Assembly (NCBI RefSeq): GCF_004104415.1
Contig: NZ_CP034669.1
Source: Corallococcus coralloides
Lineage (GTDB): Bacteria > Myxococcota > Myxococcia > Myxococcales > Myxococcaceae
Length of the DNA: 64,000 nt
Strand: one strand, 5' to 3'
Made by a program: the position numbers and the translations under genes
Shown here: piece after piece, positions 2,377 through 17,935 of the stretch
Layout: the number at the start of each line of letters is the position of its first letter
Position numbering within the stretch: the stretch's first letter is position 1
Notes under the pieces: model-generated
Seen by the model: the letters and a program-made list of their open reading frames with translations, nothing else
What the model was told of the DNA's origin: nothing
Databases searched by the model: none

Positions 2377-2502
2377 GGGGCGCCAACCTATCAAAGGCCC
2401 TGACGCTTCCAACGAGAACCACCGTGCGCCCGGCCGGGCAGGCGGACGCAAGCGCCCCCTTCTCAACACCCGCCGGCCCCCCTGCCCCCTCCGGACGGAG
2501 GG

Positions 2503-3291: not shown

Positions 3292-3384
3292 GGTGGCACC
3301 CGCCCGTCCGGAGCGTCCAATGCTGTTCTGGCATGACGCGGCCCGGGTGCACGGCGCGCACGACTCGCGCTAACCTCCCCGCGC

Positions 3385-3681
3385 GTGAGCATCACGCACC
3401 TCCAGTCCTTCGTCGCGGTGGCGGAAGAGGGCCACGTGGGCCGGGCCGCGCTCCGGCTGCACCTCACCCAGCCGCCGCTCAGCCGTCACATCCTCGCCCT
3501 GGAGGATGAACTGGGCACGCCCCTCTTCGAGCGCGTCCCCAAGGGCATGCGCCTCTTGCCCACCGGCGAGGCCCTGCTCCAGCACGCGCGCCGCATCCTC
3601 GCGGAGGTGGAGGTCGCCACCCGCACCGTGCGCGAGGCGGCCCAAGGCTCCGGAGCCGCCTCCAAGCCGCCCGCCGCCTGA
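3385..3681 (+). pseudogene. LysR-family regulator, N-terminal HTH fragment only (98 aa; truncated)
   Basis: 'MSITHLQSFVAVAEEGHVGRAALRLHLTQPPLSRHILALEDELGTPLFERVPKGMRLLPTGEALLQHARRIL' is a canonical LysR wHTH but ORF stops after ~98 aa, abutting the 3' end of the helicase gene (3685); no co-inducer-binding domain in any frame downstream. Confidence 0.45.
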
Positions 3682-3684
3682 CGG

Positions 3685-6246
3685 CTACGACCAGGCGGCC
3701 ATGCCGCCAATGCGGCGCAGCATCAGGATGGGGCCGTCGTCCATGCGCCGGCCGCGCAGATCAATCTCACAGTCGATGACCCAGTCCCCATGGCCCTCCG
3801 GGTCCATGATGCGCTGCTGGGCCTCCCACTGGCGCGTTCCTGCTTCCTTGAGCTGCGTGTTCGCCGGCTTGCGCGCCTGGGGCGTGAGCACCACCAGCTT
3901 GTGCTCCTCGAAGTACGGAGCCATGGCCTGCTCCAGCTTCGGCGCGGTCCACTCGCCCAGCGCGTTGTCCAGCATGCCCAGCGCGTCCAGGTAGCGGCGC
4001 TGGCCCAGCGCGCGCAGCAGCCGGTGCAGCTCCTCGCGCACGCGCGCGGCGAAGGCCTTGGGGTCCTCCGTGAGCTCCTTGGGCTTCAGGTCCACCACCG
4101 GCTTCACTTCGACGGGGGCCTCCGGGTTGCGCATCCGCTCCCACTCGTCCAGGAGGCTGGAGTCCACCTGACGCAGCGTCGCGCGGAGGTGGTCCAGGAT
4201 GTCGTCCAGGTCCTCGTTGCGGAACTTCTCCGGCACCGTCTGCACCAGCGACTTGTAGACGTCACCCACGTAGCGCAAGAGCACGCCCTCGCTGCGCTGC
4301 AGGCCGTACTCGCGCACGTAGTCGTGGAAGGACATGAAGCGCTCGAACATGTCCCGGACAATGGACTTGGGCCGGATGTTCTCCTCGCCCACCCACGGGT
4401 GCTTCTTCGCGAAGGCGTTGAAGGTGCCGTAGACGAACTCGCGGTTCGGCTTGGGCCACTCCAGCTTCTCCAGCTCCTCCATGCGGTCGTCGTACTCCAC
4501 GCCCCGCGCCTTCATCTCTTGGATCTTCTCCCCCTTCAGCTGGTGCAGCTGCGCGTACAGCACCACGTCCGGGTTCTCCAGGATGGACTCCACCAGCGTG
4601 ACGACGTCCAGCGCGTACGTGTCCAGCGTGGGATCCAACAGCTCCAGCGTCTCATGCAGGTACAGGGACAGCGTGTGGTTGAGGCTGAAGTCGCGCTGCA
4701 GGTCCTCCGACACCTCCACCGTCGCCGAGTGCTTCTCCCACTGCACCACCTTGACGATGCCCGCGTCGCGCAGCGTGCGGAAGTACATCGCCGCGTCCTT
4801 CAGCAGCTTCTTCTTCGTGTAGTCGGAGCTGTGCGAGCGCATCACCAGCTGCACCAGCCGCTTGTAGCCACCGCTGCCCTCCGTCTTGTCGCTCTGCAGC
4901 AGGTTGAGCAGCAGGCCGTGGCTCACGTCGAAGCGCGACTCCAGCGGCTCCGGCAGCCCGTTCTGGAGCCGCTCGAAGGTGCTCTTGTCGTACTGCACGA
5001 AGCCCTTCTGCGGCGGCTTCGCCTTGGGCGACTTCTTCTTGCCCGCGGCCTCCTTCGCGGCCTGGCGGATGTTTTCAATCATGTACTCCGGGGCCTGCGC
5101 CACCACGCTGCCCTCGGTGTCGAAGCCCTTGCGGCCCGCGCGGCCGGCGATCTGCTTGAAGTCGCGCACGCTCAGCGTCGTCAGCTTCTCGCCGTTGAAC
5201 TTGAACAGCTGCGTGAAGAGCACCGTGCGGATGGGGATGTTCACGCCCACGCCCAGCGTGTCCGTGCCGCTGATGACCTTGAGCAGGCCCTGCTGCGCCA
5301 GCTTCTCCACCAGCAGGCGGTACTTGGGCAAGAGGCCCGCGTGGTGCATGCCGATGCCGTGGCGCAGGAAGCGCTGGAAGTCCTTGCCGTAGGGCGTGTC
5401 GAAGGGGGCGTCCAAGAGCGCCTGGCGGATCTCCTCCTTCTCCTCCTTGGTGTTGAAGTCCACGGACATCAGATTCTGCGCCTGCTCGGCCGCGGCCCGC
5501 TGCGTGAAGTTCACCAGGTACACGGGGAACTTCCCGCGCGCGATGAGGTCCTGGATGGTCTCGTGCAGCGGCACCTCGCGGTAGTCGAAGTCCAGCGGCA
5601 CGGGGCGCTCGGAGCTGCGCACCGTGGCCACCTCGCGGCCGGTGAGCTTCTCCAGGCTCTGCTCGATGACGTGCGTGTCGCCCAGCGTGGCGGACATCAG
5701 CAGGAACTGCGTCTTGGGCAGCGCCAGCAGCGGAATCTGCCAGGCCACCCCGCGCTCCTTGTCGGAGTAGTAGTGGAACTCGTCCATCACCACCGCGTCC
5801 ACGCGCGCGGAGGCGTCACGCAGCGCGAGGTTCGACAAAATCTCCGCCGTGCAGCAGAGGATGGGCGCCTCGCGGTTGATGGACGCGTCGCCCGTGAGCA
5901 TGCCCACGTTCTCCGGGCCGAAGGCCTTGGAGAGCGCGAAGAACTTCTCGTTCACCAGCGCCTTGATGGGGCACGTGTAGAACGACACCCTCCCTTCGGC
6001 CATGGCCTTGAAGTGGAGCGCCATGGCCACCAGCGACTTGCCGGAGCCCGTGGGCGTCTTGAGGAACAGGTGCTTGTCGCTCAAGAGCTCCAGGATGGCC
6101 TCCTCCTGGGCGGAGTACAGGGAGAGGCCGTTCGTGGCCACGTAGCCCACGAAGCGGTTGAGGATCTCGTCGGCATCGAGGGGGGGCTCGCCGGGCTTCG
6201 GCAGCAGGGCGGCGAGCGGGGCGCGGGTGTCGGCGGAGGCACTCAT
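3685..6246 (-). CDS. DEAD/DEAH-box helicase with DUF3516-type C-terminal region (Ski2/Lhr-like)
   Basis: 853 aa; motif I 'KTPTGSGKSLVAMAL', II 'DEFHYY', III 'SATLG', VI 'QIAGRAGRKGFDTEG'; long helical C-terminal extension characteristic of DUF3516 helicases of high-GC bacteria. Confidence 0.85.
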   Translation of the reverse strand: MSASADTRAPLAALLPKPGEPPLDADEILNRFVGYVATNGLSLYSAQEEAILELLSDKHLFLKTPTGSGKSLVAMALHFKAMAEGRVSFYTCPIKALVNEKFFALSKAFGPENVGMLTGDASINREAPILCCTAEILSNLALRDASARVDAVVMDEFHYYSDKERGVAWQIPLLALPKTQFLLMSATLGDTHVIEQSLEKLTGREVATVRSSERPVPLDFDYREVPLHETIQDLIARGKFPVYLVNFTQRAAAEQAQNLMSVDFNTKEEKEEIRQALLDAPFDTPYGKDFQRFLRHGIGMHHAGLLPKYRLLVEKLAQQGLLKVISGTDTLGVGVNIPIRTVLFTQLFKFNGEKLTTLSVRDFKQIAGRAGRKGFDTEGSVVAQAPEYMIENIRQAAKEAAGKKKSPKAKPPQKGFVQYDKSTFERLQNGLPEPLESRFDVSHGLLLNLLQSDKTEGSGGYKRLVQLVMRSHSSDYTKKKLLKDAAMYFRTLRDAGIVKVVQWEKHSATVEVSEDLQRDFSLNHTLSLYLHETLELLDPTLDTYALDVVTLVESILENPDVVLYAQLHQLKGEKIQEMKARGVEYDDRMEELEKLEWPKPNREFVYGTFNAFAKKHPWVGEENIRPKSIVRDMFERFMSFHDYVREYGLQRSEGVLLRYVGDVYKSLVQTVPEKFRNEDLDDILDHLRATLRQVDSSLLDEWERMRNPEAPVEVKPVVDLKPKELTEDPKAFAARVREELHRLLRALGQRRYLDALGMLDNALGEWTAPKLEQAMAPYFEEHKLVVLTPQARKPANTQLKEAGTRQWEAQQRIMDPEGHGDWVIDCEIDLRGRRMDDGPILMLRRIGGMAAWS

Positions 6247-6752: not shown

Positions 6753-7421
6753 TCACTTCAGCGTCCCGGGCGTCGTGGACTCCAGGACGGGCGAGCGGGT
6801 GGGCGTGCTGGTGGGGGGGAGCTTCCCGCCCCCGGTGGCTTGCACGGTGAGCACCAGCTCGGTGCCGCGCGGAAGCAGCGTCCCCGGCTCGGCCGAGGCC
6901 GAGGTGACCAGGGCGGCGTCCGCCGCGCCGCTGGGGAACCGGTGCGGCACGCCAATCGCGGACAGCAGCAGCCGCGCGTCGCCCACCGTCTTGCCCACCA
7001 CCGCCGGCACCACCACCAGCGCCTCCGCCTGGGGCGAGGGAGGCACCGGCACCACCCGGAACTTCAGCCGCGACTGCGCCGTCAGGTTGTAGGCGAAGCG
7101 GTTGGTGTAGCTGGCGTCCATGGGCGCGCCGTACATCTTCAGCCGCGTCCGTCCATCCGTCCGCTCCTCCGCGGTGATGGACAGCGCCACGGCGATCTCC
7201 GCCTCGGCCTCGGGGATGTGGTACCAGGTCGGCCGGTAGCCGATGCGCTGCAGCTCCACCGCCAGGTCCTCGTCGGAGGCGTAGAGCTCGCGGATCCGCT
7301 CGATGGTCGCCGCGTCCAGCTCCCGCTGCGCCTCCGCCACGCCGCGGCCCACCGAGGAGATCAACGCGCCCAGCGGCGCGCTCAGCGCCTCCAGTTGGGG
7401 GACGTCATTCGAATCCGCCAT
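6753..7421 (-). CDS. Repeated-module paralog (copy 6) fused to C-terminal PASTA-like domain
   Basis: 222 aa; module 'LGALISSVGRGVAEAQRELD...WYHIPEAEAEIAVALSITAEERT...YNLTAQSRLKFRVVPVPPSP' then PASTA-like 'VVPAVVGKTVGDARLLLSAIGV...VTSASAEPGTLLPRGTELVLTV'. 3-nt gap to next gene. Confidence 0.55.
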   Translation of the reverse strand: MADSNDVPQLEALSAPLGALISSVGRGVAEAQRELDAATIERIRELYASDEDLAVELQRIGYRPTWYHIPEAEAEIAVALSITAEERTDGRTRLKMYGAPMDASYTNRFAYNLTAQSRLKFRVVPVPPSPQAEALVVVPAVVGKTVGDARLLLSAIGVPHRFPSGAADAALVTSASAEPGTLLPRGTELVLTVQATGGGKLPPTSTPTRSPVLESTTPGTLK

Positions 7422-7424
7422 GGT

Positions 7425-8156
7425 TCAGCCCTCCATCGCCTGGCCAATGATCAACTGCACGGGGCCCGAAGCGAGCGGCTTGCCGGGCTCCGGAATCTGC
7501 CGCAGCACGCGCCCCCACTGCCCGGGCTCCTTGACGAAGAGCGGCATCAGGTCCACCCGCAGCCCCGCCTCCGCCGCGCGCCGCCGGGCCGCCGAGGCCG
7601 TCAGCCCCAGGAAGCCTGGCACCTCGCGGGCGGGCGCGTCGCCCGGCTCGGGCGCGGCGGGAGACTGCTCCACGAACTGGGCCTCCGCCTCCGTCACGCC
7701 CTCGGGCGTCGTCTCCGTCCACCGCACGCGCACGGTGCTCAACCGCACCGTCGTCAGCGACGAGCGCACCGACTCAATCTGCTGGCCCGCCGACTTCAAC
7801 TTGTCGGACAGCACCAGGGACGGGGGCTGTTCCAGGGCGGGCTCCTTCGTGGGCTCCACCGCCGCGGAGGACACGGCGCGGACGCCCTCCCTCGCGGGCT
7901 CCAGGACGACCATCGTCCCGTAGTCGATGAGGGTGCTGCTCATCTTCACCGGGAAGGTGGCCACCCCGGCGGAGTCCAGCCGGAGGTGGGAGCCGAAGGT
8001 GGCGCTGCTGACCTCCATCTCCAGCACGCCCTCCTGGTTCGTCACCCCGGTGTCGCGCAGCTCGAAGGTGCCCGCCTTCGCGGGGACCCACCACGCCACC
8101 TTCATGCCCGCCACGGGGACTCCCGTGGCCTTGCGGAACACGGCCCGGACCTTCAT
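7425..8156 (-). CDS. CarboxypepD_reg/Big-like domain protein with C-terminal PASTA-like domain
   Basis: 243 aa; 'KATGVPVAGMKVAWWVPAKAGTFELRDTGVTNQEGVLEMEV' resembles carboxypeptidase-regulatory-like beta-sandwich; C-terminus 'VPGFLGLTASAARRRAAEAGLRVDLM...VLRQIPEPGKPLASGPVQLIIG' PASTA-like. ATGA overlap with upstream gene. Confidence 0.5.
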   Translation of the reverse strand: MKVRAVFRKATGVPVAGMKVAWWVPAKAGTFELRDTGVTNQEGVLEMEVSSATFGSHLRLDSAGVATFPVKMSSTLIDYGTMVVLEPAREGVRAVSSAAVEPTKEPALEQPPSLVLSDKLKSAGQQIESVRSSLTTVRLSTVRVRWTETTPEGVTEAEAQFVEQSPAAPEPGDAPAREVPGFLGLTASAARRRAAEAGLRVDLMPLFVKEPGQWGRVLRQIPEPGKPLASGPVQLIIGQAMEG

Positions 8157-8818
8157 CGAGCCACCTCGCAGGACAGCGCCAGCGTCCGCGACGCGGCGTC
8201 CACCGTGAGCGCCAGGATGCGGGCCTGCTCGCCGGCCGCCACGCGCAGCGTCGTCCGCGCCTCCCCGGCCGCGTCCGTCCTCACCACCGCGAGCACCACG
8301 TCCGTGCCCGCCAGCGGCGCCACGCCGGACAGCGACTGCGTCGTCCGCCGGTCCAGGTTGAACTCCACCTCCACGCCCGGCAGGGGCTCGCCCGCGGCGT
8401 TGCGCACGCGCACCACCACGCCCGGCACGCCCCCGTCGCCGAGGACGCAGCGGGCGTCCAGCACCACCGGAGGCAGGCCCTCGTTGGCCGGCACCGCGAC
8501 GAAGCTGCCGCGGATCACGCTGACAATCTCAGTCTGCGTCTGCGAAGAGGCCACGTCCGCCAGCCGCACGGGCCGCATCTTCAGGATCTTCCCGGTGGCC
8601 ACCGGTCCGGTGGTGGTGGTGGACGTCTCCACGCGCAGGTCCATCCGCAGCTCGAACTCCAGCTTCGGCACGTAGTAGGTGAACTGGCGGCCGGGGGCGC
8701 CGGCCGCGGAGATGCCCCCCAGCTCCTGCTGGGCCTTCGCCAGGCCGTCGGCCAGCTCGAGCAGGTACTCGTCCAGCGTGCCGAACAACTCCTGCGCCTG
8801 CTGTGTCGTGTCACTCAT
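8153..8818 (-). CDS. Repeated-module paralog (copy 5) fused to CarboxypepD_reg/Big-like domain
   Basis: Track ORF 8153..8857; start MSDTTQQAQELF at 8818 gives 8-nt 'ATGAGTGA' overlap with upstream stop. Module 'LDEYLLELADGLAKAQQELG...FTYYVPKLEFELRMDLRVETS...TQTEIVSVIRGSFVAVPANE' then 'VPGVVVRVRNAAGEPLPGVEVEFNLD' beta-sandwich. Confidence 0.55.
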   Translation of the reverse strand: MSDTTQQAQELFGTLDEYLLELADGLAKAQQELGGISAAGAPGRQFTYYVPKLEFELRMDLRVETSTTTTGPVATGKILKMRPVRLADVASSQTQTEIVSVIRGSFVAVPANEGLPPVVLDARCVLGDGGVPGVVVRVRNAAGEPLPGVEVEFNLDRRTTQSLSGVAPLAGTDVVLAVVRTDAAGEARTTLRVAAGEQARILALTVDAASRTLALSCEVAR

Positions 8819-9761
8819 CCCGCGCTCCCTGGCGCCCGCGTTCCCGCCGCGCGTCACGTGCCGTGTCGCGTGCGTCCATGTCGTCCATGCCCATGCCGGC
8901 GCGCTCCATCTCCATGTCCATCCGCTGCTCCATGGATTCCATGTCCATGCCGGCCATCGCCAGTCCGCGCATCATCAGGGCCTCGGTGTCCATCGAGCGG
9001 GGATCCATCCCCCGAAGCTCGCGCGCCACCGCCACCCCCTTCTCCACCTTCCCTACCGTGAGCCCGCCGCGCCCCACCAGGGCCCGGCCCACCTGCCCGA
9101 GCGAGGGCAGCGCCTGGCCCTTCTCCAGCGCGAGGGGCTTGCGCGCCGCCGAGCGCGCCTCCTCCGCCGCGTCCGACAGCCGCCGGGTCGCGGACCCCAG
9201 CTCGCCCAGGGTCATGCGCCCCCGGCCCGGAGACTCCAGCACGCGCTGCGCCAGCCGCGTCGCCAGCTTCGCGCGCTCACGCGCCTTGCGCGCCCACTGC
9301 TGGCGCAGCGTCTGCTGCTTCTGCGCCTGACGCCGGGCCGCCTTCCCCGTCTCCAGGCGCTCGCGGCGCAGCGCCTCCACCCGCTCGGCCTCCTCCGCCT
9401 CCGTCCGGCGCCGGGCGTATAGCTTCTGCTCCAGCAGCCGCCGCGCGGTGTCCCGCTCGTGCTGCTTGCGCTCCGCGATGCGCGACTCCGGCGTGTGCTG
9501 GACGACGGGGAACTGCTTCGCCAGCCGCTCGTCCACGGGCGCCTCCTGCACGCCGCTCAGCGCCTTCATCGTGTCTTCGAGCTGCCGGCGCTCCTTCAGC
9601 AGCGCCGCCAGCTCCGGGTCGCTGGCGGCCACCTGCTCCAGCGAGGGCACGGGCGCCGCCGCGGACGTGTCCGCTCCCGGAGCAGGAGCGGGCGCGCCAG
9701 CGTCGTCGGGGGCCCCGGCGGCGTCCTCCTCGAGCAGGTCTTCCCAACGGACGTGTGACAT
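8811..9761 (-). CDS. Highly charged coiled-coil protein with Met/Asp-rich C-terminal tail
   Basis: 316 aa, R/E/K/Q-rich heptad-like stretches ('RRRTEAEEAERVEALRRERLETGKAARRQAQKQQTLRQQWARKARERAKLA'), C-terminus 'MMRGLAMAGMDMESMEQRMDMEMERAGMGMDDMDARD'. No signal peptide. Confidence 0.5.
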   Translation of the reverse strand: MSHVRWEDLLEEDAAGAPDDAGAPAPAPGADTSAAAPVPSLEQVAASDPELAALLKERRQLEDTMKALSGVQEAPVDERLAKQFPVVQHTPESRIAERKQHERDTARRLLEQKLYARRRTEAEEAERVEALRRERLETGKAARRQAQKQQTLRQQWARKARERAKLATRLAQRVLESPGRGRMTLGELGSATRRLSDAAEEARSAARKPLALEKGQALPSLGQVGRALVGRGGLTVGKVEKGVAVARELRGMDPRSMDTEALMMRGLAMAGMDMESMEQRMDMEMERAGMGMDDMDARDTARDARRERGRQGARDE

Positions 9762-9779
9762 GCGCGGCGCCCCTCTTCG

Positions 9780-10370
9780 TCAGGTGACGTTGCCCACGGC
9801 GGTGTCGATCTTCCCGCTGACGGCCTCGCCCTCCGCGGTGCCCTTGAGGCTCTTGGCGATCTCCGCGCAGATCTGCTGGAGCGCCGCGGGCGGGGGGATG
9901 GGCACCAGCTTGGTGCGGATGAGGCTCGAGCCCTCGGCGGAATAGCTGTACTTCTGCGAGTGCTTGGCCGTGACGGTGGTGACGTGGCTCTTGTGGCCCT
10001 TCACCAGCGTGGTGAGGATGCCCTTGTCGCGGTCCACCTTGCGGTCGCGCGTCTGGGTCGAGTCGTCCGTGGACTCGTGCATGGAGATCTCCATCTTCAC
10101 TTCGATGATGGTCTCCACGAACTGGTAGAACGTGGGCGTGAAGCCGAGCAGGAGCAGGGGGTACTCGGTGGTCCCCAGCTTCACGAAGCCGGCGCCGTCC
10201 CGCACGGCGTTGCCGCTATCGTCGATGCGGTAGCCCGCCATGAGCTGGGCGATCTTCAGCGATGAGCTGTCCAGCGCGTACTGGGCATCCGCGATGGCGT
10301 TGCCCAGGTTGCGGACCATCTCCCCGAAGGGGACGTTGAGCAGATCCTGACCAATGGAGTGAGTGGGCAT
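9780..10370 (-). CDS. Repeated-module paralog (copy 1), stand-alone 196 aa
   Basis: 'LLNVPFGEMVRNLGNAIADAQYALD...LGFTPTFYQFVETIIEVKMEISMHEST...KYSYSAEGSSLIRTKLVPIPPPAAL'. Aligns along full length with 10389..10961 and 10984..11487. Confidence 0.6.
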   Translation of the reverse strand: MPTHSIGQDLLNVPFGEMVRNLGNAIADAQYALDSSSLKIAQLMAGYRIDDSGNAVRDGAGFVKLGTTEYPLLLLGFTPTFYQFVETIIEVKMEISMHESTDDSTQTRDRKVDRDKGILTTLVKGHKSHVTTVTAKHSQKYSYSAEGSSLIRTKLVPIPPPAALQQICAEIAKSLKGTAEGEAVSGKIDTAVGNVT

Positions 10371-10388
10371 GGTGCGCGCGCTCCCGGG

Positions 10389-10961
10389 CTACTTCGTGGT
10401 GGGCGTGGTGCCGGCCCTGGACGCGATGAGCGCGCGAACCCGCTCCTCGAAGAGGGCCGGCGGAGGCACCGGCACCAGCTTGGTGCGCAGCAGGCTGGAG
10501 CCCTCCACGCTGTAGTCGTACTTGCGCGTGTAGCTGGCATCCACGGTCGTCACCACGGCCTGGGGCGCGCCGCCGCGCTTGAAGAGGCGCAGCCCGCCGG
10601 CCGTCCGCGAGGTGCTCTGCGTCGCCACCTTGCTCTCCGTGCTCTCCGTCATCTTGATGGCGATCTTCACCTCGATGATGGTGTCCACGAACTGGTAGAA
10701 GTTGGGCGCGAAGCCCAGCTCCATCATGGACGAGGGCGTGCCCGCGAAGGACACCTTGGTGTCCACCCGGATGGGCTTGCCGGAGCCGTCGAGCTGGATG
10801 TTCCCGTCGGCGTCCCGCAGCAGCGCCTCGCCGCTCATCATCTCCGCGACGAGCATCCCGCTCTTGTCCAGCTCGAGCTGCGCCTCGGCGATGGCGGTCG
10901 CCATCTCACGAATCATGTCCCCCATGGGGACGTTCAGCAGTTCCTGACCGACGTTGGGCAT
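10389..10961 (-). CDS. Repeated-module paralog (copy 2), stand-alone 190 aa
   Basis: 'LLNVPMGDMIREMATAIAEAQLELD...LGFAPNFYQFVDTIIEVKIAIKMTESTES...KYDYSVEGSSLLRTKLVPVPPPALF'; AAGGA Shine-Dalgarno-like upstream. Confidence 0.6.
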   Translation of the reverse strand: MPNVGQELLNVPMGDMIREMATAIAEAQLELDKSGMLVAEMMSGEALLRDADGNIQLDGSGKPIRVDTKVSFAGTPSSMMELGFAPNFYQFVDTIIEVKIAIKMTESTESKVATQSTSRTAGGLRLFKRGGAPQAVVTTVDASYTRKYDYSVEGSSLLRTKLVPVPPPALFEERVRALIASRAGTTPTTK

Positions 10962-10983
10962 GGTGTCTGGGTCCTTGCGCGCT

Positions 10984-11487
10984 TCAGGCGGAGGTGTTGG
11001 TGGAGGCCGCGGGGGCGGGCGGCTGGGCGGCGATCTCGTTGAGCAGTTGGTGCAGGCGCGCGGGCGGGGGCAGCGACACCAGCCGCGCGGCGATGGAGCT
11101 GGCCCCCTGCACCTCGAAGCCGTACTTGCGGCTGTACTCGGCGTTGACCGTCACGGAGAAGACGCCGGCCATGCCGCCCGTCGCGCCGCCGCCCACGGAG
11201 AACTCCGTGGACTCGCGGATGGTGAAGGTGAGCTTCGCCTCGAGCGTGGCCTCGGCGAAGGCGTAGAACGTGGGCGTGAAGCCGAGCGCGAGCAGGCTCC
11301 ACAGCTGCCCGTCGCCCAGGTCCACGGTGCGCTCGGACATGCGCTTCGCGATGTCCAGCGAGTTGATGTCCAGCGCGTGCTGCGCGTCCGCCACCGCGCG
11401 CCCGAGCCGCTCGATGAGCTCCGGCAGCGGCGCGTCCAGCACCGTCATCATCGCGCGCTGGCCCTGCGTGGTGTTGTTTCCGGGCAT
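10984..11487 (-). CDS. Repeated-module paralog (copy 3), stand-alone 167 aa
   Basis: 'LPELIERLGRAVADAQHALD...LGFTPTFYAFAEATLEAKLTFTIRESTEFSV...KYGFEVQGASSIAARLVSLPPPARL'; AGGAGG SD immediately upstream. Confidence 0.6.
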   Translation of the reverse strand: MPGNNTTQGQRAMMTVLDAPLPELIERLGRAVADAQHALDINSLDIAKRMSERTVDLGDGQLWSLLALGFTPTFYAFAEATLEAKLTFTIRESTEFSVGGGATGGMAGVFSVTVNAEYSRKYGFEVQGASSIAARLVSLPPPARLHQLLNEIAAQPPAPAASTNTSA

Positions 11488-11496
11488 GGGGCCTCC

Positions 11497-13593
11497 TTAC
11501 GGGTACCAGCGCTGGAGGTAGTCGCCAATGGCCTGGAGGAACTGGGGCGGCGCGGGCACCGCCACCAGACGGGCCTTGATGGTCGAGCTGCCGGACACGC
11601 TCAGCTCGTACTTCACCGCCAGGTGCGCATCCACGTTGAGGGCGCGCAGCTCGCGCTCGGAGCTCTCCTCGCGGTCCGCGGACGGCTTGCCGGCGATGCG
11701 GTTGGCGGACAGCAGGAAGGCGGCGGGGTTGCTGGTGCCCAGCATGGTGCCGGAGGGGCCGGAGACGGTGACGATGTTGCCCGCGGACTGGGCCTGGAGG
11801 CCCGCGGCCAGCAGGCCGGAGCTGGAGCCCGCCGTGATGGCGGCGGCCAGGTTGCGCGCCGTGTCCGCGGCCGTCACCCCCAGCGTGAACTGCCCTGGCT
11901 GCGGGGCGACGCCGGCCTCCACGGCCACCAACTGCACGTTGTCGAGGACGACGGTGTCGCGCGGCTGGGGCGAGGCCGGGGGGCGGCCGTCGCCGAAGCG
12001 GCGGGCCACGCGGATGGAGCCGGCGGCGGACAGGGCCGGCGCGGTGGGCGTGCGCGCGAACAGGGTGAACAGGGCGTGGTCGCCGGTGCCGTACAGGTAG
12101 ACGCGGTCCCCGCGCGCGAAGGCGCCGAAGGCGGTGTTGGCGTTGGCGTCGCGGATGGCGCGGGCCAGGTTGGCGGCGGTGGACTCGGCGGTGGCGCCCA
12201 CCGCGAAGGTGGTGCCCTGGGAGGCGGTGCCCTGGGTGAAGTCCGTGCCGCGGAAGGTGACGACGGCCGTGGTGGGCGCGTTCGCCGCGGCGCGCGTGCG
12301 CGGCACGATGCGGGCCTCCCGGTCCGCCCCCGTGGGGTCGAAGGCGGCCGTGGCCGCGACGGTGCGGGCCACCAGCGACGCGGGCACGCCGGCGAACTTG
12401 AAGACGACGCGCCGGTTGGCCGCCAGGTCGGAGCCGCTGAAGCTGACCGTCGCGCCCATGCCCCGGGCCTTGAGCCTGCTGGCCGCCACGCCCCGCGACG
12501 TCAGCGCCCGCAGGACGAAGTCCGCGCGCTTCTGCGACAGGCGCTGGTTGTAGCCGGGGGCCGGCGGGGTGCGCTGGTCCGCCCAGCCCTCCAGGTCCAG
12601 CGAGGCGGACGGGTGCTCCGCCAGCAGCGCCGCCACCGCGTCGAGCACGGCGGAGGGCTCGCGGTCCGTGCTGTAGGTGGTGGTGGGCACGTCGTGGATG
12701 TCGGTGTCGAAGTAGAGGGCCCGGTTGCAGTCAGCGCCGGAGACGACGACGAAGGCCGCCGGGTCCACCTGCTGGCCAATGTCCGCCAGCGCCGCGCCCA
12801 CCGTCGCCGCGGCGCTGGTGTAGCGCGTGCCGTTGGTGGCCGGCAGCAGCAGCGCGGGCGCGGGCGTCACGCTGCCCAGGCGCGCGATGACCAGGTTGTC
12901 GCCGGGCGCCGCCTGCGGCGAGGTGCGCACGGTGATGACCGAGCGGTTGATGGCGTAGAGGTCCGGGCGGTTGGTGCTGGCGGTGACGCCCGACTGCATC
13001 TCCCAGTCCATGAAGATGCCCTGCAGATCCCCCGTGGCCTGGTTGGTCCAGACGGAGTTGTTGCGCAGGGCCACGAGCAGCTCCTGCGCCGTCTCCCACA
13101 GCGTGTCCTGGCGGGTCACGGGCAGGCCGGTGCTGTTGGGCCCCACGCCGCCGTCCAGCGCGTAGCTGGTGGTGCCCACCGTGAGGTGGCCCGGCGCGTT
13201 GGCCACCAACGCCAGACAGGCGTAGGGGGGAATGCCCTCGCCGTCCTGCACGGTGAGGGTGGCGCTGCCGCTGGCGGAGGACGTCTCGAGGCTGTACTCG
13301 CTCGACTCGTTCTCCCGGTCGTAGTTGAAGTTGACGTCCACGTCGACGGTGGTCGAGTAGTAGACGTTGAGGTTCACCTCCAGGTCGGCGTACTGGAAGT
13401 GGTAGAAGGCCGGCCGCAGCCCCAGCGACAGCAGGTTCTGCGTCATGCCCGGCAGGACGGTCTGCCCCATGCGCAGCGTCTGGTCCACGCTGTTGGTGTC
13501 CAGCTTGGCCTGGGCCTCGGCGATGGCGAGCCCCATGTCCCGGATGAAATCGGAGATGTTGAGATCCGCGAGGATCTTCCCTGCTTTCGGCAT
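11497..13593 (-). CDS. Repeated-module paralog (copy 4) split around a large insert containing an OmpA/MotB-like peptidoglycan-binding domain
   Basis: 698 aa; N-terminus 'ILADLNISDFIRDMGLAIAEAQAKLD...LGLRPAFYHFQYADLEVNLNVYYSTTVDVDV', central 'LDLEGWADQRTPPAPGYNQRLSQKRADFVLRALTSRGVAASRLKARGMGATVSF...NRRVVFKF' (OmpA_C-like), C-terminus 'KYELSVSGSSTIKARLVAVPAPPQFL'. No signal peptide. Confidence 0.6.
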   Translation of the reverse strand: MPKAGKILADLNISDFIRDMGLAIAEAQAKLDTNSVDQTLRMGQTVLPGMTQNLLSLGLRPAFYHFQYADLEVNLNVYYSTTVDVDVNFNYDRENESSEYSLETSSASGSATLTVQDGEGIPPYACLALVANAPGHLTVGTTSYALDGGVGPNSTGLPVTRQDTLWETAQELLVALRNNSVWTNQATGDLQGIFMDWEMQSGVTASTNRPDLYAINRSVITVRTSPQAAPGDNLVIARLGSVTPAPALLLPATNGTRYTSAAATVGAALADIGQQVDPAAFVVVSGADCNRALYFDTDIHDVPTTTYSTDREPSAVLDAVAALLAEHPSASLDLEGWADQRTPPAPGYNQRLSQKRADFVLRALTSRGVAASRLKARGMGATVSFSGSDLAANRRVVFKFAGVPASLVARTVAATAAFDPTGADREARIVPRTRAAANAPTTAVVTFRGTDFTQGTASQGTTFAVGATAESTAANLARAIRDANANTAFGAFARGDRVYLYGTGDHALFTLFARTPTAPALSAAGSIRVARRFGDGRPPASPQPRDTVVLDNVQLVAVEAGVAPQPGQFTLGVTAADTARNLAAAITAGSSSGLLAAGLQAQSAGNIVTVSGPSGTMLGTSNPAAFLLSANRIAGKPSADREESSERELRALNVDAHLAVKYELSVSGSSTIKARLVAVPAPPQFLQAIGDYLQRWYP

Positions 13594-13596
13594 GGT

Positions 13597-14145
13597 CTAC
13601 CCCAGGGGTGAAGCAACGGGAGGAAGTGAGACGGCGACTTCGGGACGAACGGTGTCCGGACGGACGACCCAGTAGGCGTGACGGTCCTGCTCCAGCGTGA
13701 TGCGGCGCGCGTCCACGTGCAGCCCGGTCCGCGCCCAGCCCAGTACCCGCTCCGACAGCGGGAGCCGCCCGGCGCCGGCCAGCGCCACCGCGGACTCCAG
13801 CCGGGTGCGCGCCTCCGCCAGGCGCCCCAGCTTCGCCAACGCCAGGCCGTGCCGCTCGTGGTGCGCGGCCAGGTCCAGGAGGGCCAGGTCGCTCGTGGGA
13901 GGCTGCTGCTGGTAGTGGGCCTCCACGCGCTGGCAGAAGGAGATGACGGCCTCGTGGGCCCCCGAGCGCTCCAGCGACTCGAGCACGCACCACGCATAGT
14001 GACGCTGGCAGACGTCGGAGCCGCCCTGGAGCGCGGCCAGCCGCAGCGCTTCCCGGTAGTGGCGCAGCGCCTCGTCATGCCGGCCGGCCAGCGCGAACAC
14101 CTTGCCCTGCTCCGCCACGCGGAAGTGGAGCGCGAGGGAGCTCAC
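13597..14145 (-). CDS. TPR-repeat protein
   Basis: 182 aa; helical repeats 'HDEALRHYREALRLAALQGG', 'AEARTRLESAVALAGAG' typical of TPR; ATGA overlap with upstream gene. Confidence 0.55.
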   Translation of the reverse strand: MSSLALHFRVAEQGKVFALAGRHDEALRHYREALRLAALQGGSDVCQRHYAWCVLESLERSGAHEAVISFCQRVEAHYQQQPPTSDLALLDLAAHHERHGLALAKLGRLAEARTRLESAVALAGAGRLPLSERVLGWARTGLHVDARRITLEQDRHAYWVVRPDTVRPEVAVSLPPVASPLG

Positions 14146-15224
14146 TGGGCCACCAGCGAGGCCCGCGTGCCCCGCGCTTTCAGCTCCGCGACGAGCCAGC
14201 GTGCGCGCGTGTCCCCCACCGCGGGCTGGAAGGTATGCGGCAGCCGGGAGAGCGCGGTGCGCGCCTCGTTGGCGGGCAGCCCCAGCACCGGGGCCAGCAG
14301 CTCCGCGGCCCCGGCGGGGTCCTTCGAGTCCTCCACCGTCAGGCGGAAGCTGCGGAAGTTGAGGAGCTGCACGGCCAGCTTCGCGCCCGCGGCCTCCAGG
14401 GGAGCGGTGCGCGCCACCACGTCCGCGCGCGACAGTCCCGTGTGCAGCACCACCGGCAGCCGCTTGAGCACCTTCGGCACCAGCGCCGGGGGCATGCCGG
14501 TCTCACGCACCAGCAGCTCCGGGAAGCCGGCGGCGGCGGGGGCCTCCAGGAGGCTGACGTCGAAGCGCTGGAAGGCGTGGTCCAACAACCGCACCCCACC
14601 CCGCGCTCCCAGCTCCCGCCACACGCGCTCCGCCTGCTCGTGCGAGAGGTCCCGGGCCACCAGCGGAGGCTCGCCCGGACTCACGCCCTGCGCCTCCAGC
14701 ACCGAGCGGACCACCGAGAGGCTGACCGCTTCGGTGGCGAAGACGTCATAGCGGGCCGTGGGCGGATGGCTGGCGTCCACCTCCGCGCCCAGCGGGGCGA
14801 AGCGCTCCCGGAGCGCGTCCACCGTGGCCTGGGACACGGAGCCGAGCACCGTGGGCGGCGTGGCGCAGAGCGCCGCGGCGGCGTCCGCCAGGGGACAGCC
14901 CAGGACGGCCGCCAGCTCCGTGGAAACCTCACGGAAGCGCCCGCCGTCACGCAGGTACAGCGCCACGTCGTAGGTCTGCCCGGCGGGGGGAGGAAGGGGC
15001 GCGTCATCCGGCTCCACGACCACGCGCAGGCCGGCGTTGCCCAGCACCTCCGACAGGCTCCTGGCGAGCTCCTCGGGCAGCCCTCCCGCCAGCACCGCGG
15101 GGGCGCGGAACAGCCGCGCGGCGAGCTCCGCCGGGGGCAGATCGAAATGGGGCACCAGGGCGCGGACGATGCTCGCGGAGCCTCGGTGCAAGGAGAGAAC
15201 AGTAACGCGCCATGAACCGTTCAT
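14142..15224 (-). CDS. Protein composed of ~5 tandem ribosomal L7/L12 C-terminal-domain-like repeats; first gene of operon
   Basis: 360 aa; repeats e.g. 'LPEELARSLSEVLGNAGLRVVVE', 'LSRADVVARTAPLEAAGAKLAVQ', 'ANEARTALSRLPHTFQPAVGDTRARWLVAELKARGTRASLV' resemble Ribosomal_L12 CTD (EAKdlve..Pk.lkegvskeeAeeikkkLeeaGAkvel). Confidence 0.5.
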   Translation of the reverse strand: MNGSWRVTVLSLHRGSASIVRALVPHFDLPPAELAARLFRAPAVLAGGLPEELARSLSEVLGNAGLRVVVEPDDAPLPPPAGQTYDVALYLRDGGRFREVSTELAAVLGCPLADAAAALCATPPTVLGSVSQATVDALRERFAPLGAEVDASHPPTARYDVFATEAVSLSVVRSVLEAQGVSPGEPPLVARDLSHEQAERVWRELGARGGVRLLDHAFQRFDVSLLEAPAAAGFPELLVRETGMPPALVPKVLKRLPVVLHTGLSRADVVARTAPLEAAGAKLAVQLLNFRSFRLTVEDSKDPAGAAELLAPVLGLPANEARTALSRLPHTFQPAVGDTRARWLVAELKARGTRASLVAQ

Positions 15225-15234
15225 CTGGAAACAC

Positions 15235-15262
15235 GAGACACCATCCGGTGTTTCACTGTCAA
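15235..15262 (-). promoter_or_regulatory. Candidate operator/promoter of the 11-gene operon: imperfect inverted repeat GAGACACC-N4-GGTGTTTC 11 nt upstream of ATG, preceded by TTGACA hexamer
   Basis: Seen directly: + strand 15235-15254 'gagacaccatccggtgtttc' (7/8 palindromic arms); 15257-15262 'tgtcaa' = TTGACA on the coding strand. No convincing -10 hexamer. Confidence 0.25.
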
Positions 15263-15510
15263 CGATTCGCGAGGTGCGAGGCGCTTACCAATGTATGAGA
15301 AATGCCCGCTCGCTCCTCTCAATCCAACCTCCTCCGTCATGACGCGGGCTGATACACGCCCGTGAAACATCCGGCTGGGTCTGGGCCGGCGGGTCGTGCC
15401 TGACGCCCTGCCTGCCCGGTCTGTGCTCACAGGCACACTGGCAACGGCTGAAGCGCGCATGGCCATGGGCGGAGGGCCTCCCCATCCTGCCCCCGCGACA
15501 TTCACGGGGG

Positions 15511-16161
15511 ATGAAAATGCGGACAGCGAAATTCTGGATGGGGACACTGCTGGCGGGCGCGCTGGCGCTGGGCTACGGGTGCGGAAGCGACGCGAACAAG
15601 GATCCGGCGCCGCAGGACGCGCCACAGCAGCAGGTCCCGGACGCGGGCACCGACGCGGGCGTGGTGCTGACGCTCACCGACGCGCAGATCGCCCGCGTCC
15701 TGCAGGTGGCCAACGAGGGCGAGGTGATGCTCGGCCAGTACGCCGCGTCGGTCGCCACCGACCAGGCCGTGATCGACTTCAACAACCAGATGGTGACCGA
15801 GCACACCGCCGTGAAGCAACGGCTGGACGCGGTGCTCGCGGCCGAGGGCATCACGCCCGAGGACTCCGCGCTGAGCCTCCAGTTGCAGACCGAGGTCCAG
15901 CAGCTCATGCAGATCCTCCAGGGCCCGAACGCGCCGGCCGCGGGCGCCGCGCTCGACCTGGCGTTGCTCAGCGCGCAGCTCAACGCGCACGCGCGCACCG
16001 CCTTCATCGGCGACAGCCTGCTGACGCCGCAGGCCACCAACACGGCCCTTCAGCAGGAGCTGCTCAGCGAACGGCAGGCCGTGCAGACGCACATCGACGA
16101 GGTGGCGGAACTCCAGTCCGCCATCGTCTTGCCTCCCATCGAGCCTCCCGTCGAGCCGTAG
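15511..16161 (+). CDS. DUF4142-family lipoprotein (predicted outer-membrane protein)
   Basis: 216 aa; signal + lipobox 'LALGYGC'; 'LTDAQIARVLQVANEGEVMLGQYAASVATDQAVIDFNNQMVTEHTAVKQRLD' matches DUF4142 duplicated-helix pattern. Confidence 0.75.
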   Translation: MKMRTAKFWMGTLLAGALALGYGCGSDANKDPAPQDAPQQQVPDAGTDAGVVLTLTDAQIARVLQVANEGEVMLGQYAASVATDQAVIDFNNQMVTEHTAVKQRLDAVLAAEGITPEDSALSLQLQTEVQQLMQILQGPNAPAAGAALDLALLSAQLNAHARTAFIGDSLLTPQATNTALQQELLSERQAVQTHIDEVAELQSAIVLPPIEPPVEP

Positions 16162-16196
16162 CCGGAGCGCCTTCCGTCTCTGGCTAAAAGTACAGC

Positions 16197-16228
16197 TCGG
16201 GCTCTCAGAACCTGAGAGCCCGAGCGCC
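16197..16228 (+). terminator. Perfect 14-bp stem hairpin (GCTCGGGCTCTCAG-AACC-CTGAGAGCCCGAGC) downstream of DUF4142 gene
   Basis: Seen directly; GC-rich stem, no U-tract (common in high-GC genomes). Confidence 0.5.
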
Positions 16229-16309
16229 TTCGCACGACCCGTGGGGGAGGATTCGACCCAGGTGCTTTCCAATCGTGTCGGCCCGGTTTAGTAGGAATTT
16301 GGACCGCCG

Positions 16310-17935
16310 ATGCAAAAGCCAACCGAACCGACCTCCGCGCAGAGTGAGCCGTTGACGACGGGCCGGGTCCTGCGCTCCACGTATGAGATTGGCACCGTGC
16401 TGGGCAAGGGCGGCATGGGCGCGGTGTTCCTCGCGCGCCACCTGCGCCTGCCGGGCAAGCAGGTCGCCATCAAGGTGCTGCACGGCGCGGAGGCGCTGTC
16501 GGAGGAGGTGGCGGTGCGCTTCCGGCGCGAGGCGGAGATCGCCTCGCGGCTGGGGCACCCGAACATCGTGGAGGTGCTGGACTTCGACACCCTGGAGGAC
16601 GGCACGCCCTTCATGGTGATGGAGTACCTGCGCGGTGAGGGCCTGTCGCGCCGGCTGCGCAAGCAGAAGCAGCTGCCGCTGGAGGAGGTCTTCTCCATCA
16701 CGCGGCAGATGGGCGCGGCGTTGCAGGCGGCGCACCGCGCGGGCGTGGTGCACCGCGACCTGAAGCCGGGCAACGTGTTCCTCGTGCCCACGGAGGCGGG
16801 CGGCGTCGTGGGCGAGCGCGTGAAGCTGCTCGACTTCGGCATCTCCAAGCTCGTGGACGCGCGCACGGTGATGACGCTGGACTCCGTGCTGATGGGGACG
16901 CCGCAGTACATGGCCCCCGAGCAGGCCATGGGCCACAACAGCAACGTGGACGCTCGCACGGACCTCTTCGCGTTCGGCTGCATCGTCTACGAGATGCTCG
17001 CCGGCCGGCCGCCCTACTCCGGCGAGAACGTCGCGGAGCTCATCTACCAGATCGTCCACCTGGAGCCCCCGCCGCTGCTGACGCTGGCGCCCGGGACGCC
17101 GCCGCACGTGGTGGCGGCCATCTCCCGCGCGATGGCGAAGAAGCCGGAGGACCGCTACCCGGACGTGGGCGCGTTCATCCTGGAGCTGACGGGCAGCCCG
17201 CTCCAGACGCTCGCGGAAGTGAAGCCGGAGCAGCGCTCGCGCCCCACCGCGCCCACGGCTCCGCCGCCCTCGGTGCCGCGTCCGCCGGACCGCGAGGAGC
17301 ACATCCCCACGGTGGGCATGCGCCCCCACGCCGGCCGGGATACGTCCCCTCCTGCTTCCGGGCCCCGGACGGAGTCCCTGGCCGCGCAGCCGCTGGCCCC
17401 CGCCCGCCCGAAGTGGCCGGTGGCCGTGGCGGTGGGGATGGCGGTCATCATCGCGTTCGCGGTCGCCTTCTTCTGGAAGCGCCCGGACGTGGCGCCGCCC
17501 GCCGTCGTCGCGGTGGATCCCCCGGCCCGGCCCCAGCCCTCCACGCCCGTCACCCCGCCGCCCGCGGCGGTCGTTGCGCCGCCGGAGGACGTGAAGAAGC
17601 CCGTGGAGCCGGAACCCCAGCAGCCGCCGACGGACCCGCCCACGGTGAACGCGAAGCCGAAGCCTCGCGTCGCCCCCGAGTCCATGCCGGACAGCGTGCG
17701 CGAGGACCTGGCGGCGGCGCAGAAGGCGCTGGACGCTTCGAACACGGAGGAAGCGCTGCGCCACATCCGGCGCAGCCAGCGCACGAAGATCACCGGCCTG
17801 TCGTTCTCGCTGCTCACCCGCGTGTACTGCCAGCAGCACGACCTGGCGAACACGCGAGCACAATGGACCCGCGTACCGGCAACGGAACGTCCCAGGGTCC
17901 GACAATACTGTTCGCAGTACGATATCGACCTGTAG
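16310..17935 (+). CDS. Ser/Thr protein kinase with Pro-rich linker, TM segment and C-terminal extracytoplasmic domain
   Basis: 541 aa; 'LGKGGMGAVFLARH', 'VAIKVL', 'HRDLKPGNVFL', 'DFGISK', 'APEQ'; TM 'WPVAVAVGMAVIIAFAVAFFW'. Confidence 0.9.
   Translation: MQKPTEPTSAQSEPLTTGRVLRSTYEIGTVLGKGGMGAVFLARHLRLPGKQVAIKVLHGAEALSEEVAVRFRREAEIASRLGHPNIVEVLDFDTLEDGTPFMVMEYLRGEGLSRRLRKQKQLPLEEVFSITRQMGAALQAAHRAGVVHRDLKPGNVFLVPTEAGGVVGERVKLLDFGISKLVDARTVMTLDSVLMGTPQYMAPEQAMGHNSNVDARTDLFAFGCIVYEMLAGRPPYSGENVAELIYQIVHLEPPPLLTLAPGTPPHVVAAISRAMAKKPEDRYPDVGAFILELTGSPLQTLAEVKPEQRSRPTAPTAPPPSVPRPPDREEHIPTVGMRPHAGRDTSPPASGPRTESLAAQPLAPARPKWPVAVAVGMAVIIAFAVAFFWKRPDVAPPAVVAVDPPARPQPSTPVTPPPAAVVAPPEDVKKPVEPEPQQPPTDPPTVNAKPKPRVAPESMPDSVREDLAAAQKALDASNTEEALRHIRRSQRTKITGLSFSLLTRVYCQQHDLANTRAQWTRVPATERPRVRQYCSQYDIDL

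Follow-up and report, generated by a model that had tools for sequence, protein, structure and literature searches.

The genes at 9780-13593 (minus strand) of a Corallococcus coralloides sequence (contig NZ_CP034669.1), here called P1 to P4, encode four non-redundant paralogues, out of a set of six that diverged long ago, of an undescribed module of about 150 amino acids (aa). The window, as the term is used below, is the whole stretch of 64,000 nucleotides (nt) that was analysed. All six paralogues belong to a single operon of ten genes that recurs in the same order in distant bacteria, and the longest of them, P4, carries a 540-aa block at the predicted tip of the module's beta-hairpin. The best overall explanation, which we place just on the probable side, is that the six modules are assembled together and that permissive sites in them display binding domains.

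Six paralogues of one module

The first-pass annotation of this DNA had described P1 to P4 as four tandem paralogues. The coordinates of the four open reading frames (ORFs) and their strand were exact, and every peptide quoted is present in the translations. The similarity among the four held up but the count did not, since the operon contains two further paralogues, in the positions we call slots H and J. In pairwise BLASTP with compositional adjustment, P1 is 44% identical to P2 (E 6e-49) and 36% identical to P3 (E 3e-30). P1 to P3 had been said to align without large gaps; both the P1/P2 and the P1/P3 alignments in fact have gaps of 12-15 residues at two places, the connector between the helix and the first strand and the hairpin tip. 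The same two places hold large insertions elsewhere in the family. The product of slot J matches P1-P3 at E 1e-9 to 1e-12 in BLASTP and is also matched by the family hidden Markov model (HMM), which was built from 39 homologues. Slot H was found only by profile-profile comparison, in which an hhalign alignment of its orthologues with the module profile gave a probability of 79% (E 1.5e-5) and covered the helix and both strands.

P1 and P4 align as two separate collinear pieces. The first covers P4 aa 5-84 (E 2e-07); the C-terminal high-scoring segment pair covers P4 aa 567-689 (E 4e-05), of which only the last 40 or so residues belong to the module. The family HMM places the break more exactly. 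It matches P4 aa 3-103 with profile positions 3-119 (E 8.5e-9) and aa 644-693 with positions 120-169 (E 1.9e-8), so the insert, at the break between positions 119 and 120, is aa 104-643. The two halves of the module, which had been reported as separated by about 500 aa, are thus 540 aa apart.

The suggestion that the likeness of P1-P4 is merely compositional, which the first-pass annotation had itself named as the finding that would overturn its reading, or that P4 reflects an annotation error or joins unrelated ORFs, is refuted. The G+C content of the window is about 72%, and the region overlaps with many spurious long ORFs, but E values adjusted for composition go down to the 6e-49 given above, every paralogue has orthologues in low-GC Bacteroidota and in Gammaproteobacteria in the same order, and the architecture of P4 is conserved in 59 of 70 loci.

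The operon

The ten genes, all on the minus strand, are tightly spaced and form one operon at 6753-15224 (about 8.5 kb). By ORF coordinates, the spacers between them run from -47 (or -8) to +22 nt, with overlaps of 4-47 nt, and the genes are translationally coupled. They are transcribed in the order A-B-C(P4)-D(P3)-E(P2)-F(P1)-G-H-I-J, where each letter denotes a slot, as follows.

14142-15224, minus strand: slot A, operon gene 1; 360 aa, apparently about five tandem divergent repeats resembling the L7/L12 C-terminal domain (CTD), without signal peptide
13597-14145, minus strand: slot B, operon gene 2; 182-aa tetratricopeptide repeat (TPR) protein, with a 4-nt overlap with gene 1
11497-13593, minus strand: slot C, P4; 698 aa, module interrupted at the hairpin tip by a 540-aa insert
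10984-11487, minus strand: slot D, P3; 167 aa, minimal module with a short, Gly-rich hairpin tip
10389-10961, minus strand: slot E, P2; 190 aa, without the connector insert common in its orthologues
9780-10370, minus strand: slot F, P1; 196 aa, the module used for structure prediction
8811-9761, minus strand: slot G, operon gene 7; 316 aa, highly charged low-complexity protein rich in Arg, Glu and Ala
8153-8857, minus strand: slot H, sixth paralogue (divergent); 234 aa, module and C-terminal immunoglobulin (Ig)-like (Big_1-like) domain
7425-8156, minus strand: slot I, operon gene 9; 243 aa, N-terminal Ig-like domain and C-terminal PASTA domain
6753-7421, minus strand: slot J, fifth paralogue and last operon gene; 222 aa, module at about aa 11-130 and C-terminal PASTA domain at aa 136-193

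Fold and sequence pattern of the module

The module consists of a conserved amphipathic helix at the N-terminus (A-x-A-Q-x-x-L-D), a variable connector, a long beta-hairpin with L-G-F-x-P-x-F-Y at its start and L-V-P-x-P-P-P at its end, and a helix at the C-terminus. An AlphaFold2 model of P1, made with the 39-sequence alignment, has a mean predicted local distance difference test score (pLDDT) of 73.6, and its confidence is high for the helix and the proximal part of the hairpin. In this model a helix at residues 15-44 is followed by two small hairpins (47-71), the long hairpin (81-107 and 133-158) and a second helix (162-188). The tip loop, residues 108-132, has a pLDDT below 50, so it is predicted not to be packed against anything.

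Both strands of the long hairpin show a strict alternation of hydrophobic and polar residues over about 13 positions, with conservation on both faces. In P1 the residues D86, E90, K92, K140, E146, R152 and K154 form a polar face that is almost invariant.

The insert in P4

The break in P4 corresponds to P1 residues 122-123 or thereabouts and falls at the predicted tip of the hairpin, in agreement with the earlier proposal of a domain inserted into a loop of the module. Surface exposure of that loop had been put forward for checking. The low pLDDT at the tip of the P1 model favours exposure, as far as a monomer of moderate confidence, rather than an assembly, can indicate it. The parts of P4 are as follows.

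13285-13593, minus strand: N-terminal module half, aa 1-103; comprises the conserved helix, the connector and the first of the long strands
11665-13284, minus strand: insert, aa 104-643; alpha/beta repeat units on either side of an OmpA-like domain
12421-12654, minus strand: OmpA_C-like domain within the insert, aa 314-391; Pfam PF00691
11500-11664, minus strand: C-terminal module half, aa 644-698; comprises the second of the long strands, the V-P-A-P-P motif and a C-terminal helix

The OmpA/MotB-like segment that the first-pass annotation had recognised is matched by PF00691 at E 1.5e-10, with 41.7 bits against the curated cut-off of 27.2, and makes up only about 15% of the insert, which is a multi-domain block of which this domain is one part. 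The NCBIfam models for Pal, YiaD and MotB match the OmpA-like part of P4 and nothing else in it. In Pal, OmpA and MotB structures, an Asp and an Arg contact the diaminopimelate (DAP) of peptidoglycan. Both are kept in P4 as D339 and R356, within E-G-W-A-D and N-Q-R-L-S-Q-K-R-A (the pattern G-x-x-D ... N-x-x-L-S-x-x-R-A), and both columns are conserved in all of the slot-C sequences displayed from a cross-phylum alignment. By these motifs, the OmpA-like domain of P4 is probably of the peptidoglycan-binding type. PF00691 scores among slot-C orthologues range from 21 to 76 bits, and two orthologues have no match.

The rest of the insert contains repeat units at about aa 135-180, 445-505 and 545-620, that share the motif F-x-(V/L)-G-x-T-A-x-x-T-A-x-N-L-A-x-A-I. 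The second and third of them (about aa 455-480 and 561-586) align with each other at E 1.6e-4, the first only weakly; none of these units is matched by a Pfam family. Column occupancy in a 60-sequence slot-C alignment indicates that the layout of the insert is conserved across phyla, save for the unit at aa 541-620, which occurs almost only in Myxococcota.

The slot-C protein is long (at least 520 aa) in 59 of 70 loci, and a single locus has one of 403 aa. In about ten loci it does not exceed 229 aa and is free of the insert; at least three of these are doubtful calls: the slot was misassigned in one metagenome-assembled genome (MAG; locus L006), and the proteins of L030 and L068, of 101 and 122 aa, fall below the length of a complete module. 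Judging by the remaining short sequences, the module can exist at slot C without the insert. The insertion is not local to this genome; it is an ancient, orthologous feature of slot C across phyla, and slot C is an orthologue group with a block of about 450-580 aa, containing an OmpA-type domain, exactly at the hairpin tip.

Insertion sites and attached domains in the family

We mapped internal inserts of 30 aa or more from per-domain HMM hits in 712 family members. They cluster at two sites only. The hairpin-tip site (profile positions 100-130) is occupied in about 67 proteins, mostly by inserts of 220-580 aa, which bears out the earlier view that this position tolerates large insertions. The connector between helix and strand (positions 50-69) is occupied in 79 proteins, by inserts of 32-260 aa. 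C-terminal extensions of at least 40 aa are found in 117 of 677 proteins, and those that can be identified are Big_2, PASTA or Laminin_G_3 domains. The domains attached to the family are all of binding types: OmpA, Big_1, Big_2, PASTA, Laminin_G_3 and coiled coils.

These differences follow the slots in part. The slot E (P2) orthologues, with a median length of 261 aa, mostly have a connector insert of 30-130 aa (up to 260 aa) and give split matches to P2, whereas slot D (P3) has a median of 155 aa. Some orthologues of slot F (P1) carry C-terminal Big_2 domains. The 190-aa P2 of Corallococcus does not have the connector insert, unlike the slot-E orthologues in L001, L004, L006 and others; with its long P4 and short P2, the Corallococcus operon is a mixed subtype. 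In five family proteins (P0283, P0296, P0311, P0238 and P0314; 421-607 aa) the module is followed by one or two Laminin_G_3 lectin domains, and at locus L088 (1598-3406) a gene for a module with Laminin_G_3 lies just after the PASTA-bearing slot-J gene.

Conservation and distribution of the operon

P1 has 1726 homologues in a set of 5.8 billion proteins, and all that carry a name are called "hypothetical protein". Searching 1.84 billion representatives with the family profile gave 1126 clusters (50% identity). When one genome per species was scanned with two strict peptide patterns, at least 296 contained a relative, the strictness of the patterns making this a lower bound. Judged by their record titles (MAG labels in some cases), these genomes span the Myxococcota, Gamma- and Alphaproteobacteria, Bacteroidota, Opitutales, Gemmatimonadota, Nitrospirota, Latescibacterota and Desulfuromonadales. 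The operon itself occurs in at least eight phyla. Its hosts are essentially all Gram-negative (diderm) and include cultivable Halomonas, Marinobacter, Dokdonia, Fluviicola, Flavobacterium, Corallococcus and Archangium.

About 70 loci, representing about as many species among the matching genomes, were long enough for comparison and share the order A-B-C-D-E-F-(G)-H-(I)-J. In Halomonas alkalicola (CP130143.1), for instance, the operon covers 8-9 kb at about 1,599,000-1,607,500. With slots assigned by position alone, the best cross-locus hit of a module among those below 60% identity lay in the same slot in 399 of 407 cases (69 of 70 for slot D and 64 of 64 for slot J). The duplications are therefore older than the spread of the cassette, and every copy has been kept. 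Six orthologous slots, all of them retained, are what one assembly would show if its subunits could not replace one another. A search for linked lysis, ATPase or secretion genes, made by clustering all flanking ORFs across 79 loci, gave no family shared beyond close relatives, so that no further gene family shows consistent linkage to the operon.

Three variant loci deserve description. In Pleionea sediminis (L003, 15171-16111), a GH108 endolysin with a PG_binding_3 domain and a three-helix holin of the gene transfer agent (GTA) type are encoded 3' of the operon and on its strand, with an extra, seventh module gene in between; in about 75 loci, no other genome had lysis genes linked to the operon. 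In the MAG locus L006 (10329-17392), the variable slot encodes a 710-aa Laminin_G_3 protein and there is an extra module gene. Downstream are a 618-aa Peptidase_S74 protein (the tail-fibre chaperone type) with six 33-nt tandem repeats and, on the opposite strand, a reverse transcriptase. We considered a diversity-generating retroelement there and rejected it, as 9.4 kb contained no pair of template and variable repeats but only coding tandem repeats of 33 and 75 nt. A plasmid of Sphaerotilus sulfidivorans (NZ_CP035710.1; L087, 8048-10827) has a reduced cluster of five genes annotated as hypothetical proteins. Two of their products are clear modules (172 and 178 aa, with HMM E values of 8e-39 and 1e-22) and another may be a divergent third; the others are a 278-aa coiled-coil protein and a 114-aa protein. 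This cluster may be a minimal version of the system.

Searches against known families

Profile searches used Pfam-A 2025, NCBIfam r20, PHROGs v4 and PADLOC 2.0, with a match threshold of E 0.1 or less. In these four databases the core module found nothing, P1 and P3 having no match and P2 a single match at chance level. When 39 members were scanned singly, only appended Ig domains were found. The ten operon proteins gave only accessory domains in the same databases and no enzyme or ATPase domain in Pfam or NCBIfam. No PADLOC defence model matches, apart from one chance-level hit on slot G (E 0.016). Neither single-protein nor profile searches matched the core module to any sequence in the PDB, and slots A and B gave only generic TPR matches there. 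No signal peptide or membrane helix was predicted in the ten operon proteins or in their orthologues at four other loci.

Searches of viral sequences were equally negative. With tblastn, three different modules had no match in 50,697 phage genomes, and two profiles had none in 2.9 million IMG/VR contigs. A phage origin was rejected on the absence of the module from these collections and on the housekeeping nature of the flanking genes. A single viral protein model of 178 aa (BFVD A0A516MP19) matched the P1 model in Foldseek, at E 7e-5 with 17% identity and template modelling (TM) scores of 0.34-0.37.

The Foldseek neighbours of the P1 model in the PDB are weak, all with E of 0.17 or more, and comprise the podophage lower collar, binary-toxin, aerolysin and lysenin pores, FlgH and FliF. 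Their common theme is long hairpins that pair laterally in oligomeric rings or barrels. We take the likeness to be one of analogy rather than homology.

Full-text literature searches, protein accession numbers included, returned nothing on the module family. One candidate paper, PMC7159879, was set aside because it concerns unrelated systems.

Other operon genes and the flanks

Slot A reaches the Pfam Ribosomal_L12 family with 29.1 bits against a cut-off of 25.9, by summing weak pieces. Five segments of the protein align in register, and self-BLAST misses the repeats. From this alignment, slot A appears to consist of five L7/L12-CTD-like repeats. Slot B matches the Pfam families TPR_12 and TPR_2 at or above their cut-offs, and its orthologues across phyla are 40-49% identical.

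Slot G is composed of 14% Arg, 11% Glu and 16% Ala. A W-x-D-L-L motif is conserved at its N-terminus, and its tail is rich in Met and Asp (MDMESMEQRMDMEMERAGMGMDDMD). Its orthologues are Arg-rich in the proteobacteria and Lys-rich (25%) in the Bacteroidota, and full-length ones have 221-458 aa. No Pfam or NCBIfam family matches it. It is present in the operon at 57 loci, in addition to loci matched directly.

The Big_1 match of slot H (E 2.2e-5) is below the Pfam cut-off. The true start of this protein may be the methionine at aa 14 (8818), the residue from which orthologous sequences align. The PASTA domains (PF03793) of slots I and J score 26.7 and 29.8 bits, respectively, against a cut-off of 23.2. 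Slot I is present in 72 loci. In the orthologues of ten loci PASTA is at the C-terminus. Compared with the Corallococcus protein, orthologues in other genomes add a long coiled coil or Laminin_G_3 domains, making for a fibre-like protein.

The flanks of the operon (1360-6246 and 15511-17935) are ordinary chromosomal genes, among them YceG/MltG-like, methionine aminopeptidase (M24), DEAD-box/DUF3516 helicase, DUF4142 and Ser/Thr kinase genes. The G+C content of the operon is not atypical. A scan of the operon ends found no convincing sigma-70 or sigma-54 promoter and no terminator. There is a perfect TTGACA about 40 nt upstream of the first start codon (15225-15300, minus strand), with no recognisable -10 element after it, and the scan also gave a weak terminator-like hairpin at 15238-15251, upstream of the operon. 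Rfam searches gave no element in the operon or in seven other loci.

Comparison with known systems

The lower collar or tail-tube proteins of podophages (phi29 gp11; P68 and Andhra; PDB 6qz9, 6iac and 8egr) resemble the module in having helices and a very long beta-hairpin and in lacking a signal peptide. Their hairpins pair laterally in a dodecamer to form a beta-barrel tube, and they are among the top Foldseek neighbours in both the PDB and BFVD. The PDB matches, however, have E 0.17-0.63 and TM scores of 0.1-0.2, there is no sequence similarity, and no phage genes lie beside the operon. Ring proteins with long hairpin collars, namely FliF (RBM3/beta-collar), SpoIIIAG and the L-ring protein FlgH, are also among the closest known systems.

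The flagellar axial paralogues (FlgB/C/F/G/E/K/L and FliC) are co-encoded and non-redundant, have conserved ends and a permissive centre, lack signal peptides and are served by dedicated chaperones. The six-paralogue operon shares this logic of organisation. The axial proteins have terminal coiled-coil helices in place of the helix and hairpin of the module. No Pfam flagellar family matches the operon proteins and no type III export genes are linked to them. Many of the hosts have no flagella, and many, such as the Flavobacteriia and Myxococcota, lack flagellar type III export.

Sets of paralogues with the tail-tube fold in phages and contractile injection systems, such as lambda gpV with its C-terminal Big_2 domain, share with the operon the duplication of a small module into ring-forming paralogues and the C-terminal Ig-like domains. 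They differ in that the module matches neither the sequence nor the structure of tube, Hcp or gpV proteins, and the operon encodes no homologue of a sheath, baseplate or tape-measure protein. For the insert of P4 alone the closest known proteins are OmpA_C, Pal and MotB (PF00691), whose motifs G-x-x-D and N-x-x-L-S-x-x-R-A ... N-R-R-V are kept. In P4, however, this domain is nested in the hairpin of another protein, is flanked by undescribed repeat units and belongs to a protein in which signal peptide, lipobox and membrane anchor are all absent.

GvpA and its paralogues (GvpJ/M/S) have the order helix-strand-strand-helix, are encoded several to a structural operon and lack signal peptides. 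The hairpin of our module is much longer and has a charged conserved face. Membership in the gas vesicle family was rejected, because hhalign with a GvpA sequence gave a probability of 0.2%, there is no Pfam Gas_vesicle match, and the operon has no GvpN or GvpF/L genes. Membership among the beta-barrel pore toxins was not supported either: the alternating pattern is present, but the tip is a polar loop of 25 aa in P1 or a folded insert of 540 aa in P4, and both faces of the hairpin are strongly conserved.

Proposed assembly and alternative explanations

Co-assembly of the six paralogues is, in our judgement, fairly probable. Contacts between their helix and hairpin cores would join the modules in a hetero-oligomeric ring stack, tube or sheet, in which neighbouring hairpins would pair laterally, the helices would cover the hydrophobic face of the strands, and the invariant charged face would form the lining of a lumen or interface. 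The hairpin tip, the helix-strand connector and the C-terminus, which are the three permissive sites, would point outward and display OmpA-like, Ig-like, PASTA and Laminin-G lectin domains. These domains, together with the coiled-coil slot-I protein, might attach the assembly to peptidoglycan or glycans. The TPR protein of slot B, a candidate assembly chaperone, and the L12-like protein of slot A may keep subunits unassembled or guide their assembly, and the ER/K-type charged protein of slot G is a candidate scaffold or length ruler. As every operon protein lacks an export signal, assembly in the cytoplasm and action after release would be the leading option for where and how such a complex works.

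Several points weigh against this explanation. Peptidoglycan-, glycan- and Ig-type domains are normally extracytoplasmic, yet nothing in the operon explains export, and a lysis cassette accompanies the operon only in Pleionea. Instead of binding ligands, the PASTA and OmpA-like domains could serve as structural connectors. In the P1 model the pLDDT is 45-60 over the distal half of the hairpin, so the length and regularity of the hairpin are uncertain; the AlphaFold2 model of P4, built with 13 Myxococcota orthologues, has a pLDDT of 48, is confident only for aa 230-430 and does not give the geometry of the insert relative to the module. The roles suggested for the TPR, L12-like and charged proteins are guesses by analogy.

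The explanation can be narrowed by fixing the location, and one such version, which we think possible although the balance is against it, is a released, phage-independent particle akin to a bacteriocin or tailocin, built in the cytoplasm, freed by lysis or another route, and binding the walls or glycans of other cells. The operon proteins combine an absence of export signals with domains typical of extracellular or virion proteins, and of the logics we considered that of a phage virion, built inside and acting after release, fits such a combination best. The endolysin and holin directly after the Pleionea operon point the same way, as do the Laminin_G_3 protein in the variable slot at L006 and the tail-fibre-type protein and reverse transcriptase downstream of it; each is an isolated case. 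The patchy distribution across phyla suggests horizontal transfer. On the other hand, the linkage to lysis genes is confined to one genome in about 75 loci, Pfam and PHROGs reveal no homologue of a sheath, tube, baseplate, capsid or terminase, the family was not found in the phage genomes or IMG/VR contigs, and the producers appear to be diderm only, a limit that a diffusible weapon would not need. A structure of the producer's own envelope would account for that limit. It would lie in or across the periplasm, anchored to DAP-type peptidoglycan by the OmpA-like domain of P4 and exported by an unrecognised route, with the logic of the flagellar rod and rings. The peptidoglycan-contact Asp/Arg motif conserved in slot C and the likeness to the flagellar axial proteins (paralogues with conserved ends, variable inserts and no signal peptides) speak for it. 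The operon, though, encodes no signal peptide, lipobox, membrane segment, export gate or ATPase, none is conserved nearby, and flagellar type III export is, as mentioned, missing from many hosts. We consider an envelope structure improbable, and more so than a released particle.

A beta-barrel pore, whether a toxin or an abortive-infection effector whose amphipathic hairpins insert into a membrane, would explain the alternation of hydrophobic and polar residues over about 13 positions in both strands. It would also suit the weak Foldseek neighbours iota/CDTb, anthrax PA, aerolysin and lysenin and the patchy, island-like distribution typical of conflict systems. A folded insert of 540 aa at the hairpin tip of P4 could not cross a bilayer, however, and this makes a membrane pore unlikely. 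Moreover, the hydrophobic face is highly conserved and core-like rather than variable as a lipid-facing surface would be, the polar face is charged and invariant, no PADLOC model matches, and all the Foldseek matches have E of 0.17 or more. Altogether we give a pore very little credence.

Implications

We regard the module and the ten-gene cassette as new with respect to curated families and known systems. A strictly ordered cassette of ten genes is found in hundreds of species, and such conservation usually denotes a machine. We think it a serious prospect, though one that falls a little short of probable, that the cassette specifies a new class of supramolecular assembly, built from six specialised paralogues with a new helix/long-hairpin fold, independent of Sec, decorated with peptidoglycan- and glycan-binding domains, encoded by a mobile ten-gene cassette in at least eight Gram-negative phyla, and unrelated to phage tails, flagella, pili, secretion systems, gas vesicles or microcompartments.

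Because the cassette has no enzyme, ATPase, export signal or recognisable core family, solving it would add a new kind of bacterial assembly. It also poses a puzzle, in that peptidoglycan-, Ig- and lectin-type domains are carried by proteins with no visible exit from the cytoplasm. The three natural insertion sites accept from tens to several hundred residues, and the module would be an attractive display scaffold if self-assembly proves true. The operon is only about 8.5 kb long and several of its hosts are easy to grow, so these proposals are directly testable.

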